Source of the DNA: a virus
Lineage: Duplodnaviria; Heunggongvirae; Uroviricota; Caudoviricetes
Strand: one strand, 5' to 3'
Virus record (IMG/VR): IMGVR_UViG_3300035520_000484
Coordinates: 98,993-162,992 of that record
Length of the DNA stretch: 64,000 nt
Shown: positions 35,780 through 38,577 of the stretch, one piece after another
How the letters are laid out: each line of letters starts with the position of its first letter
Position numbering within the stretch: position 1 is the first letter of the stretch
Translations under genes and position numbers: made by a program
The notes under the pieces: model-generated
What the model was told of the DNA's origin: nothing
The model's database searches: none
Seen by the model: the letters and a program-made list of their open reading frames with translations, nothing else

Positions 35780-36616
35780 TTACTTTTTCTGACATTCTTT
35801 CAATTTTATATAAAGTTCACGTTCTTTCTTACTAAGTTTAGTAGGCATTACTAAATTTAATTTAATATAAAGATCAGCTCCAGAAACTAATCCATGATTA
35901 GCAATTCGGAACTTTTTATCAGGACTAGTACCTGCTGGAATATTTATCTTTAATTTAGTTCCTTTTAATGTAGGAATTTCAGCAGATGTTCCAAGTACTA
36001 AATCAGGAATTGTTATATCTAAAGTATATATTAAATTGAAAAGTGAATTTTCAAAATCCTTATGAGGAAGAATATTAAAATCAATTAAGATATTACAATC
36101 AGGAGTAGAATACGCATTTTGTAGATTAAGAGGATCTAATACTACAGATATTGTTCTAATTTCAGATTCTCCACATCTACCTGTGCCATGACAATGTTTA
36201 CAAGTGGTTTCTGTAATGGCTATACCAAATGGAGTTTTAGTTTGACTACGTTCCATTCCAGTACCATTACAATGTTTACACTTATCTTTACCAATAGAAT
36301 ATTGTACTTCTTTAGTAACTTTATTATAAAGATCTTCAAGAGTACAATTTAAAGTAACCTTTACAGTAGGTTTAGAAGGTCTGTTATGTAATCCGAAAGG
36401 ATCAAACATTGTAGGAGGATTATCATAATCAGCTCGTTTTTCCTCATTTCCTAACGTTTCATAAGCTTCAGAAATTTCTCGAAATTTCTCTTCAGCTTCA
36501 GGATTATCAGGATTTCTATCGGGATGATATTTTTTACTTAAATTACGATAAGCCTTTTTAATTTCGTCTTGAGTAGCAGTTTTGTTTACTCCAAGAATTT
36601 CATAATAATCTTTCAT
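35780..36616 (-). CDS. DnaJ-like co-chaperone (J domain plus Cys-rich zinc finger). Its ATG overlaps the TGA of the recoded gene upstream (ATGA).
   Basis: DYYEILGV...[26 protein letters not shown] is a J domain with [11 protein letters not shown]...CKHCHGTG are CxxCxGxG repeats. Confidence 0.8.
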
Positions 36617-38577
36617 ACTAAATTATTTGTCTATTCTGGTGCTTCATATACATAGTCTCTTAATAGTTTTCCTAAATACTCTTCATCAAAAGTATTTCTT
36701 AATCTATTAAAAGAGGGTGAGTCATAATAAGTATCAATAAATTGCTGAGGTGTTAAATTAAGTTCATTCATCTTTATGATATGAGGTTCTAATTCACCTC
36801 TACCTTCAGTACCTATTATTTCTCCTTTTTTATTTCGACCGATTCTTAATATATAATCAAGATACTCATCCTATCCAGGTTCCTTATTTGGAAGAAGGTG
36901 ATTTCTAGCATCTTTTAAAAGATTTGTATTATGTTTCTAGAACAAATTTAAATCCCAAGCATGACCAAATTCATGTAATAACGCTTCTTCTAAGGAAGTT
37001 GCCCCATCATTAATAGCTGGTTCTGCTGTAGAAATAACAATATTTGCTCCAGATTCTTCAGGTAATTTCTAAGTAAATGCAGATAATTTACGATTAGGAA
37101 CAAAAGCAATATGAGTATTATTTAATATCTATGTTGCTTTATTAATAATAGCTTGTCTCTAATCCTTAAATCCAGCACGAATTAATCTTCTAGCATAGTC
37201 ACCTGAATTAAGATAATCAATTACTTTCTATTTTTGAGGATCAATTATAGCTTCTTGTACTTCTTTAGATACAGAAGGAGCAATATAATTTTCACCAACA
37301 TCATTATGAGTTACTACATATTCAGAAGTATCATAATTTTTATTATGTATATCTCTTAAATCATCAAGAGTAAGATTCTATTTATATTCAGGATTGATTA
37401 CGGATGCAGTAAACCCTTCAGGAGAATCATTAGAAAGTACAACTCTAGGCTTAAATTCGCCTGTATATAGACTATGCTAGAAACCTATTGGAGTTTCATT
37501 CTTACTAAGTGACATACCAAATGAAGGTTCAGTAGTCATAAATGACGTATATCCATCTCCTTCAAAGTTATTAGTATAATACCAATTTGGATTCTTTTGA
37601 TTAGCTGTAAGTACGTCCTGAACATTTACTTTTAACTCGGGATATTCCCAATTTAATCCTTTATAAAAATCAGGATTAGTATATCTATCCCAAGCTCCAT
37701 AATCATATCCTGCATTTATAGGAGCTGTATTATTACTATAAGTCCAAACTCCCTTATGGACACTCATATTCTTATTTTCAGGATTAGATAAGATTTTAGA
37801 AACAACAGGTGATCCTTCTTCTACAAAATGTAATCCCATATCAGTTCCTTTAGAAGCTTCCAATGTACCATTAAGTACTTTAGAATCAGAAACATGTTCT
37901 ATAGGAATATTAAAAAGATGAGCATCTTTAACATCATTATTAATTTGTCTTGCTAAATTAGAATATTCCATCTATTTCCTTATCCAAGGAATTTCAATAG
38001 AACTAGGATTAGTTCTAGTTAATGGAATAAAACTTAATGCCGTTAAAGCAGCATTTCCATAAGTAGGATTTTTTAGAAATTCCTTTCCATTATGATATAC
38101 TCCTGCTCCAGTAAGTGCTAAATTAGCTGTAGTACCTAACCATTTAGGTGCCCCAATTAAATCAAGCCAAGTAGAAGGAGTTAGTGCTGCATCAACTACA
38201 GGTAATGCATAATATAAACCACCTGCTGCGGCAGCTCCAGCAGCCTAAGTACCTAGAAAAGTTAACCAACTATTCTAATCAAACTATTTATGAACACGTT
38301 CATCGGCTTTAGCTTGTCTTATTTCCTCAGCATCAGCTTTTTCTAACTAATTACCAGAATTAGGAGTAACTCCTTTATCTAAATAATATTCAGATAAATT
38401 ATTTCCTGAAATAGGTAATTCTGTTTCATCATCTACATAAATCTAGTAATTAGGATCAGATAACATTACTGTTTGCCAAGGTAATTCTTTACCATTTACA
38501 TCTATTACATTAGAATTAGTATTCCAATAAGAAGAATCAATTTGAGATATAGGAACAATACGAGCTTTCTTTTTCAT
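36613..38577 (-). CDS. Late protein with about 17 in-frame TAG codons (read as Gln). N-terminal Gly/Ala-rich hydrophobic domain paralogous to gene 60045-62030; C-terminal zincin-like metalloprotease domain (HEFGH).
   Basis: With TAG as sense, the frame is open for about 655 codons from ATG 38577 to TGA 36613-36615. The N-terminal domain aligns to the paralogue with TAG opposite CAA (Gln). HEFGHAWD provides an HExxH motif. The ORF track sees only the 164-aa fragment 37477-37971. Confidence 0.7.

Follow-up and report, generated by a model that had tools for sequence, protein, structure and literature searches.

The stretch of phage DNA analysed here (the window, 64,000 nucleotides) holds two genes whose products begin alike and end differently, one of them running into an HExxH domain. 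This raises the question of whether the two are true paralogues and what their common part is for: might it be a module that takes unrelated C-terminal domains into the virion and on into the next host cell? The two genes, another that encodes a second HExxH protein and a tRNA gene that bears on all three are the following.

36613-38577, minus strand: gene A, 654 aa with TAG read as Gln, 15 in-frame TAG codons, stop TGA
60045-62030, minus strand: gene B, 661 aa, 10 in-frame TAG codons, stop TAA
57006-57758, minus strand: gene C, 250 aa, 5 TAG codons; a stand-alone divergent zincin
54118-54192, plus strand: suppressor tRNA with anticodon CTA (ARAGORN)

The reading frames of A and B are open only with TAG readthrough, every internal stop in A, B and gene C being TAG. 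The called genes all end in TAA or TGA, and homologues most often carry Gln in the alignment columns where TAG occurs. In-frame stops confined to TAG, a suppressor tRNA and Gln at the aligned positions together indicate genetic code 15 (TAG=Gln), and full-length translation depends on TAG readthrough. Descent of the suppressor from the phage tRNA-Gln(UUG) was considered and is not supported, the pair being no more alike than other tRNA pairs.

The recoded codon is very unevenly spread: it accounts for 64 of the 3620 codons in A and the 54.7-64 kb cluster that contains B and C, against 21 of 14039 elsewhere. Gene A itself is a TAG-rich island, with 15 TAG codons compared with none in the two adjoining genes, both of which it overlaps at ATGA. 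Relatives keep this island within an otherwise TAG-free operon (14 versus 0 TAG in L001, 15 versus 0 in L009), so that translation of A should depend on the suppressor tRNA. Judging from the sequences, B, C and a further gene, D (see below), would need it as well. A gating role for recoding in late and lytic gene expression has been proposed (bioRxiv 10.1101/2021.08.26.457843), and a conserved TAG-rich island in a TAG-free operon would make a clean natural case of recoding timing one gene.

The similarity of A and B is confined to an N-terminal module, of which the parts are as follows.

37969-38385, minus strand: N-module of A, aa 65-203, common to B (BLASTP 58%, nmod HMM E=5e-24)
38182-38268, minus strand: Gly/Ala-rich stretch of A, aa 104-132, 29 residues, 45% Gly+Ala, hydropathy peak 1.24
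38167-38181, minus strand: TPSTW motif of A, directly after the Gly/Ala-rich stretch
61503-61913, minus strand: N-module of B, aa 40-176
61710-61796, minus strand: Gly/Ala-rich stretch of B, aa 79-107

Over this module A and B are true paralogues, and their C-terminal parts are unrelated, as both BLASTP and domain HMM mapping find. With composition-based statistics, BLASTP aligns aa 65-203 of A with aa 40-176 of B at 81/139 identities (58%, E=1e-40). The initial annotation was right that such a region exists, although it put the length at about 150 aa instead of the roughly 139 found here, and it interchanged the two peptides quoted in evidence: that beginning GTQALGAAAAGLG comes from 60045-62030 and the other, of which 12 letters were shown, from 36613-38577. 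It had also warned that the likeness might be a coincidence of low complexity. The Smith-Waterman score of 394, compared with 33 +/- 5 for 500 shuffles, falls only to 326 (shuffled, 27 +/- 5; z ~65) when the Gly/Ala-rich stretch is cut out, and the shuffling thus excludes coincidence both with and without that stretch.

In A the module consists, in order, of a polar lead-in of 20 residues, the Gly/Ala-rich hydrophobic stretch, the TPSTW motif and amphipathic helices. The hydrophobic stretch starts at aa 79 in B, at aa 104 in A and as late as aa ~230 in relatives, and is followed by a conserved segment of ~100 aa, polar and amphipathic (GQAxTPSTW..GADLA..), in which GQAxTPSTW is nearly invariant across 52 sequences. 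It is moderately to weakly hydrophobic, with 19-residue Kyte-Doolittle maxima of 1.24 in A, 1.43 in B and 1.5-1.9 in relatives, and AlphaFold renders the module as an unconfident helix (pLDDT <50). The N-modules are glycine-zipper-like and may insert into membranes.

At the other end of A lies the domain with the HExxH motif. Its features, and their counterparts in C, are listed here.

36622-37275, minus strand: zincin (gluzincin-like) domain of A, aa ~435-652
36961-36975, minus strand: HEFGH of A, aa 535-539
36805-36807, minus strand: Glu591 of A, candidate third zinc ligand
57363-57377, minus strand: HEYTH of C, aa 128-132
57252-57254, minus strand: Glu169 of C (in DPNE), candidate ligand

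The domain has a zincin fold with a conserved HExxH...E signature. Homologues P0003, P0001 and P0029 and subsequences were used in place of TAG=Gln translations. In the model of a homologous zincin domain the HExxH lies on helix 95-107, and helix 155-170 is headed by the candidate ligand, a Glu corresponding to E591 in A and E169 in C that is invariant in all of the 26 and the 21 aligned sequences. A three-stranded mixed sheet, the active-site helix and the glutamate helix, which define the zincin core, are all there. The model thus bears out the earlier suggestion that A carries a zincin-like domain, for which peptidase activity is predicted. The His, Glu and His of HExxH are nearly invariant in 52 relatives, and the domain is further marked by a conserved Tyr (Tyr575 in A), by the motif E(F/L)RQR and by a C-terminal tail that is hydrophobic and rich in Asn. 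Catalytic function is not retained throughout, since SREFGK replaces HEFGH in one relative (P0032); HExxxH variants also occur.

The nearest structural comparison is with M13 peptidases (neprilysin/PepO) and other gluzincins, which likewise place an HExxH helix and a Glu on a later helix ~50-60 aa apart. Superposition of M13 structures with A-type zincins extends only over the catalytic core (~150 residues, 7-12% identity), and M13 enzymes have a large second lobe which the domain of A lacks, along with any match at the sequence level. Because the match stops at the catalytic core, assignment to M13 was rejected. Among PDB sequences, the full-length, zincin and middle-domain profiles found no significant match; the best peptidase hits were reprolysins (E 0.1-0.8) and PepN (E 1.5), none of them significant and none M13. 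A Foldseek search of the PDB with the full-length model returned only noise.

The second HExxH protein, which had also been picked out at the start, proves to belong, as a divergent member, to this zincin family. Aligned by hhalign with the zincin-domain profile, C scores a probability of 86% (E 4.8e-6), with HExxH, Tyr, Glu and a TPEE motif in register, and hmmsearch finds it at E=4e-4. It has no N-module of any kind.

In A, one more domain separates the N-module from the zincin.

37495-37959, minus strand: middle domain of A, aa 207-361, with motifs IEHVS, GxHF, WTYSNNT, DxG, YxNxFEG and LSKN

Moderate fold evidence indicates that this domain probably has an ADP-ribosyltransferase (ART)-like fold; it resembles RES, diphtheria-toxin and PARP folds and shows an H-Y-E/D-type pattern of conserved residues. 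Among 24 middle domains the Glu/Asp of YxNxFEG is present in every one, the His of GxHFS in 22, a second His, that of EHVS, in 20 and the Tyr of WTYSNNT in 18. All lie on or beside predicted strands, and the conserved His, Tyr and Glu/Asp may form the catalytic triad of an ART. No curated ART family was matched either in a Pfam scan of the 24 middle domains, which gave no match at all, or in the profile search of PDB sequences.

Gene B has a different continuation, and gene D a different beginning.

60048-61355, minus strand: C-terminal module of B (bmod), aa 226-661, with 18 homologues
57758-59263, minus strand: gene D, 501 aa, 15 TAG codons; third member of the shuffling network

The ~435 aa that follow the N-module in B are characterized by the motifs LEKQLSKQGT, GHSRxxTT, ExQSDWAQ, MRYPTRETA, ILKKYxDFPKQ and GNTWYEVxVP and by a C-terminal [YF]KxGGxL. 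In relatives this module occurs alone (~440 aa) or in ~1100-aa fusions with SLT, lysozyme or a further HExxH domain, and the genes lie near those for portal, GH108 and tail-fibre proteins. Gene D encodes a second kind of glycine-rich hydrophobic N-module (nmod2, aa 64-225) and a C-terminal domain (aa 234-401, with the motif MRYRxGDVEINDPNxNYRQG). Its N-terminal part shares 35-37% identity with P0119, P0040 and P0118, which bear middle and zincin domains, and its C-terminal part matches P0083, P0081 and P0066, which bear the N-module of A and B; D thus joins nmod2 to a domain that elsewhere follows the first type. Mapping of domain HMMs on ~140 relatives extends the picture: the first N-module is found with middle and zincin domains, as in A, with the zincin directly, or with at least six unrelated C-termini, and nmod2 is also found with middle and zincin domains. 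The modules are clearly shuffled. The initial annotation had mentioned neither the middle domain of A, nor gene D, nor the place of A as a TAG-rich island.

What might such shuffling serve? In the reading that we favour, and judge somewhat probable, A, B and D, together with C as a stand-alone zincin, represent a combinatorial late phage family in which a Gly/Ala-rich N-terminal delivery module is combined with interchangeable C-terminal modules to give virion-delivered polyvalent effector or ejection proteins. Gene A would then encode a polyvalent effector composed of N-module, ART-like domain (an assignment that we infer from the moderate fold evidence) and gluzincin-type metallopeptidase. 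Polyvalence, meaning at least two disparate activities per polypeptide, describes A with its ART-like and zincin domains, and relatives go further with SLT, lysozyme or a second HExxH domain.

Such proteins might work as follows. Genes A, B, C and D would be transcribed with their neighbours, but complete translation would have to await an active phage suppressor tRNA(CUA), making their products late. The N-module would steer them into the particle, either to the cargo space of capsid or tail or to the ejection apparatus. At infection they would leave ahead of the DNA or with it, the weakly hydrophobic N-module inserting into or crossing the host envelope. In the new cytoplasm the ART-like domain could modify host targets with NAD+, and the zincin domain could either trim or release effector domains by autoprocessing, or else cleave host proteins. 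B-type modules may serve envelope penetration; relatives have them joined to lytic transglycosylase or lysozyme domains. Packaging, ejection, membrane insertion and all substrates are putative: context, architecture and TAG gating are consistent with packaging, but holin-like proteins and murein hydrolases share the cluster.

A close precedent is provided by the polyvalent proteins of phages and conjugative elements, which phages package and inject (Iyer, Burroughs, Anand, de Souza, Aravind 2017; PMC5512222). These too carry several unrelated enzymatic domains per polypeptide, and the combination of an H-Y-D/E ART with a zincin-like metallopeptidase (MPTase), comparable to that in A, is their commonest hub. 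HExxxH variants and lysozyme or transglycosylase fusions, seen in relatives here, are likewise reported for them, as are late expression and a proposed delivery with the DNA. However, none of the Pfam models for polyvalent MPTase, ART and LPD domains detects A, B, C or their relatives. The present family is also smaller (250-860 aa, with relatives up to ~1350), and neither the Gly/Ala-rich N-module dedicated to it nor its short motifs in the C-terminal tail appear to be described in PMC5512222. A further difference is that its translation is gated by stop-codon recoding.

T4 Alt, of ~650-680 aa, is packaged through an N-terminal targeting sequence. It is made late, packaged and injected, and then modifies host proteins (PMC5512222); the product of gene A would work likewise. 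Alt is, however, an R-S-E ART, in contrast to the H-Y-E/D-type pattern of A, and has neither the zincin domain nor the hydrophobic module that A possesses.

For the N-module, the crAss001 cargo proteins C1 (gp45) and C2 (gp46) offer a parallel (Bayfield et al. 2023, PMC10172136). Both are large proteins from the virion interior of a gut Bacteroidota phage, proposed to exit through the tail and form a trans-envelope channel. The predicted transmembrane helix of gp45 (residues 136-158; PMC10172136) lies ~140 aa from the N-terminus and, in the gp45 sequence, falls in a Gly/Ala-rich stretch akin to that of the N-module. The virion location of gp45 and gp46 is experimental whereas that of A, B, C and D is predicted, and the crAss001 proteins, unlike those here, contain no recognised enzyme domains. 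Comparison of gp44, gp45 and gp46 with all module profiles by hmmsearch and hhalign revealed no similarity.

Podovirus ejection proteins (gp14, gp15 and gp16 of T7; gp51, gp52 and the vRNAP gp50 of N4) are similarly soluble apart from hydrophobic helices that are N-proximal or terminal, and T7 gp16 has a cell-wall hydrolase domain. In N4, gp52 has a transmembrane helix at 72-88, gp51 and gp52 form channels, and the vRNAP contains an HExxH domain (PMC13434306). No paralogy links these proteins and no modules pass between them, whereas the family described here shuffles its modules and bears ART-like and zincin 'warheads'. Homology between them and this family was not found.

The surroundings of the genes invite a different explanation, which is unlikely but deserves to be weighed. 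One tight operon holds B, C and D along with genes for an SLT/LysM protein, a LysM protein and two small holin-like multi-TM proteins (62796-63053 and 62030-62230), joined in near-identical strains by NlpC/P60 and glucosaminidase genes. With holin-like proteins and murein hydrolases together, the cluster could be a lysis or egress module. The proteins would then be enzymes of the producing cell, exported by a weak signal anchor of the SAR kind that later releases their C-terminal domains into the periplasm, where the zincin, like the modules of B and D, would attack peptidoglycan cross-links, lipoproteins or the outer membrane alongside the holin-like proteins and hydrolases. The hydrophobic stretches, weak and with 45% Gly+Ala, do recall those of SAR endolysins, themselves late proteins encoded close to genes for holin-like and muralytic proteins; B has relatives with fused SLT or lysozyme domains or with GH108 alongside; and TAG gating would suit lysis genes equally well. 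Nevertheless, the segment of a SAR endolysin is N-terminal, whereas here it is internal, beginning at aa 79 in B, aa 104 in A and later in relatives, and the ~100 conserved residues after it go far beyond the needs of an anchor. SAR endolysins carry a muralytic domain, unlike the ART-like and zincin domains of A, which are not of muralytic types. The ART-like domain would, moreover, need NAD+, a cytoplasmic cofactor, so that ART biochemistry suggests a cytoplasmic rather than a periplasmic site of action. Endolysins of 500-1150 aa, built from several unrelated modules, would be unusual, and gene A is far from the cluster.

Gene A instead has genes of regulation and replication around it (Trans_reg_C, DnaJ, RNase H) and not structural ones, a position that speaks against delivery, and no capsid, portal or tail genes are visible within the 64-kb window. 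This position, inside an operon with ATGA overlaps, would fit late intracellular enzymes that are never packaged, an interpretation to which we give little credence. A would modify or cleave host or phage proteins in the cell where it is made, for takeover, anti-defence or virion maturation, and the N-module would be only a membrane tether or oligomeriser. ART-like and zincin domains could well work in the same cytoplasm, and C manages without an N-module. However, one N-module recombined with many unrelated 'heads' is the signature of trafficking or delivery rather than of an enzyme-specific function, relatives of the B module lie in structural or late regions and are fused to cell-wall hydrolases, and takeover enzymes are normally early while TAG gating delays A.

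The proteins might also be purely structural, tape-measure-like or channel-forming parts of the internal tail or ejectosome, in which the zincin only autoprocesses during assembly and the 'ART-like' fold is non-catalytic. Zincin domains of the P1 DdrB type have been proposed to autoprocess before packaging (PMC5512222), one relative has lost its HExxH histidines, and the glycine-zipper character of the N-modules would be in keeping with such a role. This is improbable, since H/Y/E-type residues of the middle domain and HExxH...E are kept in nearly all members, which points to retained catalysis, and the C-terminal modules are more diverse than a structural part would lead one to expect. Finally, the idea that A and B are pseudogenes broken by TAG stops, alike at the N-terminus by compositional chance, is effectively refuted: the standard code does split both into many pieces, but TAG is the sole interruption, a tRNA with anticodon CTA is present, homologues run the full length and stay in alignment across the TAG positions, where most have Gln, and the shuffle z-score withstands removal of the Gly/Ala stretch.

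If the proteins are, as we favour, injected effectors, they would reveal host preparation at entry by large uncultivated code-15 gut phages, through NAD+-dependent modification and proteolysis. A bolder proposal can be put forward only tentatively. The N-module and its glycine-rich variant in D might be a new protein-delivery domain, a swappable 'ejection tag' with which large gut phages pack arbitrary warheads into their particles, be they ART-like toxin folds, zincins, cell-wall hydrolases or the modules of B and D, and pass them through the envelope of the host. TAG recoding would time-lock production even inside an early operon, and the family would be a phage counterpart of bacterial polymorphic-toxin systems. 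A module so compact could also serve to load foreign proteins into phage particles.

Three domain families emerge that are unannotated at present: the zincin (HExxH...Y...E with a hydrophobic tail), the ART-like domain and the B module. Pfam and PHROGs give nothing significant for A, B or C, and Pfam nothing at E<=1 for A or C. Since current libraries miss all three families, such genes are annotated as fragments or hypotheticals. Against GenBank phages, blastn and tblastn searches with the region, A and B match only the DnaJ neighbour, tblastn finding no match to A and B in 50,697 phage records. Scans of IMG/VR with A produced no confirmed locus, and the 21-sequence alignment no usable pattern. 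One relative that has the lead-in of the N-module (P0002) follows a 4265-aa ORF, which could not be called a virion RNA polymerase as it matches no Pfam family. The family as a whole is rare, with 74 representatives among 1.84 billion proteins, and is found on contigs of 110-177 kb.

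Genes A and B, as the initial annotation had claimed, share a Gly/Ala-rich N-terminal region, where BLASTP aligns 139 aa (65-203 in A with 40-176 in B) at 58% identity (E=1e-40). Their local alignment score of 394, against 33 ± 5 for shuffled sequences, falls only to 326 against 27 ± 5 without the Gly/Ala-rich stretch, so that low-complexity coincidence is ruled out and the similarity is real homology. The paralogy is well supported. The annotation's two example peptides were credited to the wrong genes, each to the other, but the rest of its description is accurate, and its interpretation as a whole is partly supported. 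The recoded genes and the tRNA concerned are:

36613-38577, minus strand: gene A, 654 aa, 15 internal TAG
60045-62030, minus strand: gene B, 661 aa, 10 internal TAG
57006-57758, minus strand: gene C, 250 aa, 5 internal TAG
57758-59263, minus strand: gene D, 501 aa, 15 TAG
54118-54192, plus strand: suppressor tRNA, anticodon CTA

The window is AT-rich (GC about 29%), with nearly all genes on the minus strand. A, B and C form continuous reading frames only with TAG as a sense codon: no other stop codon interrupts them, and TGA or TAA closes each gene. In the TAG columns Gln is the commonest residue in homologues. TAG density is 64 in 3620 codons in A and the 54.7-64 kb cluster, compared with 21 in 14039 elsewhere in the window. 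The suppressor tRNA, on the strand opposite to almost all genes, resembles the phage tRNA-Gln(TTG) at 46316-46388 no more than it does the other tRNAs. Around it (50000-56000) GC reaches 0.40, GC skew switches sign and few ORFs are called.

Gene A has ATGA overlaps with both neighbours, a Trans_reg_C gene upstream (38574-38864) and a full DnaJ gene downstream (35780-36616), yet it alone is TAG-rich, the joined neighbours being TAG-free. Its orthologues (L001 6503-8824 and L009 10001-11902, on contigs of ~165-177 kb) have 14-15 TAG against none in the flanking genes. This conserved TAG-gated island within a TAG-free operon is new. Translation of full-length A therefore requires the suppressor tRNA, and in recoded phages such dependence has been proposed to delay late and lytic genes (bioRxiv 10.1101/2021.08.26.457843). 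The early stop at codon 45 of A could also alter translation of the coupled DnaJ.

Neither Pfam nor PHROGs recognizes A, B or C, and no relative of A or B was found among GenBank phages. Very large protein collections gave first matches, three for A and 18 for B; a two-sequence profile then defined a family of 74 representatives among 1.84 billion proteins, and a 21-sequence profile matched 62 proteins. Many members come from 110-177 kb contigs. Local HMMs for four modules, mapped onto ~140 sequences, reveal that the modules recombine freely. A comprises the shared N-module (85-189), a middle domain (207-361) additional to those initially annotated, and a zincin domain (395-652), while B joins the N-module (61-165) to a 435-aa C-terminal module, here bmod. 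Among relatives the N-module precedes middle and zincin domains, the zincin domain directly, or several unrelated C-termini, and a second, glycine-rich N-module also precedes middle and zincin domains. Gene D carries this second module, whereas in three relatives (P0083, P0081, P0066) the C-terminal domain found in D comes after the A/B-type N-module. Besides the stand-alone zincin C, at least three genes of the window thus belong to a single shuffling network. Three sequence families without a match in any library, together with a dedicated recombining N-module, are new.

The second N-module is hydrophobic and glycine-zipper-like (STDYVP..GG.GGRY.G..YDSPY.GQ.IG) and elsewhere is fused to ART-like and zincin domains. 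Iterated profiles of both N-modules start to match the same proteins, so the two may be distantly related. Relatives of bmod occur on their own or within proteins of ~1100 aa that also carry SLT, lysozyme or another HExxH domain, and they lie near portal, GH108 and tail-fibre genes. A ~50-aa motif, IHI(K/D)PSxKGxFTxxAxxxGKSxxxxAxxVLAN...KKAxFAxNAxKWxxxGG, recurs in P0008, P0010 and P0012 beside the SLT/lysozyme domains of large bmod proteins.

Four segments make up the A/B-type N-module: a polar lead-in, VTPNSxxQLEKxD..ADERVHxQF; a ~28-aa stretch of 45% Gly+Ala; a near-invariant GQAxTPSTW motif; and ~60 aa of amphipathic helices ending P.TR. Its hydropathy is moderate (1.2-1.9) and its AlphaFold prediction unconfident, so that membrane insertion is plausible but unproven. 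The strong conservation of its polar motifs points to an additional, specific role in protein-protein contacts or processing. Two C-terminal tails recur: a short hydrophobic run with an Asn-rich end, ..MLGLMLGTTPLIVNTNNDKSS, in zincin-type proteins (P0003, P0022-P0030 and others), and [YF]KxGGxL, often with Lys-rich residues after it, in B, P0014-P0021, P0070, P0083 and P0089-P0091. A short N-terminal motif, DP(N/D)Y(E/Q)IY(V/T)D, common to A (aa ~38-50, 38440-38470), gene E (55952-57016) and the B relative P0004, may represent another signal or processing site that they have in common.

In the zincin domain the HExxH residues, a Tyr ~40-45 aa downstream and a Glu ~50 aa downstream (H535, E536, H539, Y575 and E591 in A) vary little or not at all across alignments of 21, 26 and 52 sequences. 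The homologous domain of P0029 (412-639; AlphaFold pLDDT 84, pTM 0.82, 26-sequence alignment) is modelled with the expected three-stranded sheet, HExxH helix and later helix starting with the invariant Glu. Conservation and model support well the zincin-like protease domain initially annotated in A. No significant sequence-profile match to PDB peptidases was found; membership of M13, the top entry in the table below, was therefore rejected, and the domain represents a sequence family of its own, new, whose modelled core is gluzincin-like.

Scores for the zincin domain
M13 PepO: 8.3
Lactobacillus PepO: 7.2
Zmp1: 7.0
Neprilysin: 6.9
ECE-1: 6.3
PPEP-2: 5.8
M1 and thermolysin: 5.2-5.3
Lethal factor and botulinum toxin: lower

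By profile-profile comparison (probability 86%, E 4.8e-6) C, singled out initially as a second HExxH protein, belongs to this family too, with HEYTH aligned on HEFGH and DPNE on the Glu motif. One relative, P0032, has SREFGK for HEFGH with the rest of the domain kept, and is apparently inactivated; the others all have HExxH.

The middle domain, with an alpha/beta fold, matched nothing in any sequence library searched. Conserved on or beside its strands are His (GxHFS, 22/24; EHVS, 20/24), Tyr (WTYSNNT, 18/24) and Glu/Asp (YxNxFEG, 24/24). An ART-like H-Y-E/D domain is probable, not established.

Scores for the middle domain
ParT (RES): 6.3
Res: 5.7
MbcT: 5.7
SAIP: 5.7
Diphtheria toxin: 5.6 and 5.1
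NatT: 5.4
Tankyrase and other PARP domains: 4.8-5.3
Exotoxin A: 4.7

On the best-supported reading, A, B, C, D and their relatives are virion-delivered proteins of the polyvalent kind, and their packaging is plausible. Such systems are already known, both as injected polyvalent effectors and as ejection proteins with hydrophobic segments. A zincin metallopeptidase with an H-Y-D/E ART is the commonest polyvalent combination, HExxxH variants and lysozyme fusions also occurring, and the proposal for these proteins is that they are packaged and injected (PMC5512222); the probable pairing of both domains in A supports virion delivery. So do proven cargo and ejection proteins with similar N-proximal hydrophobic segments, namely crAss001 gp45, a confirmed cargo protein (Gly/Ala-rich predicted TM 136-158; PMC10172136), and N4 gp52 (TM 72-88), which forms channels with gp51 (PMC13434306). 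A common N-module on unrelated C-termini, which a shared loading or translocation route would predict, also counts in favour, as does the putative NAD+-dependent domain, which would be expected to work in a cytoplasm. Homology to any proven virion protein was not found, which weighs against delivery in the virion.

Against virion delivery also count the non-structural location of A and the lysis-like flavour of the tight B, D, C operon, which includes:

62030-62230, minus strand: small protein, 66 aa
62796-63053, minus strand: small protein, 85 aa
63060-63932: SLT ORF, C-terminal part of a 532-aa LysM-SLT protein extending beyond the window end

Besides LysM-SLT the operon encodes a second LysM-bearing protein, and the two small proteins, between the SLT gene and B, have two or three hydrophobic helices and look holin-like. 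Just past the window end, strains L012 and L013 (98-100% identical) carry NlpC/P60 and glucosaminidase genes; in L012 (1058-4504) an NlpC/P60-glucosaminidase and a glucosaminidase gene lie just upstream of LysM-SLT. The murein hydrolase set beside B, D and C is unusually large. The main rival, in which the producing cell exports late envelope-attacking enzymes in a SAR-like manner, is considered unlikely. Non-packaged intracellular enzymes are a still less probable explanation, and purely structural or autoprocessing roles are the least probable of all.

A 182-aa protein at 62248-62796 (minus strand) without a Pfam match starts IGTHNSATY, by eye like a PI-PLC X-domain motif. P0002, which has the N-module lead-in, lies directly downstream of a 4265-aa ORF (L007 1-9940) that has no Pfam family and is possibly a giant virion protein. 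Ribonucleotide reductase is seemingly split (427-1134, 10447-12039, 12088-12963, 13130-13492, 14325-14804) and interleaved with GIY-YIG-type endonuclease ORFs, suggesting introns, inteins or homing elements. The phage also encodes, on the minus strand, a complete sigma-70-type factor (2837-3691), the full DnaJ with J domain, zinc finger and C-terminal domain, and an SPFH/Band 7 lipoprotein-like protein (44604-45416). The nearest relatives of its replicative helicase are on unannotated contigs of human-gut phages (42%), followed by those of crAss-like phages (~30%).
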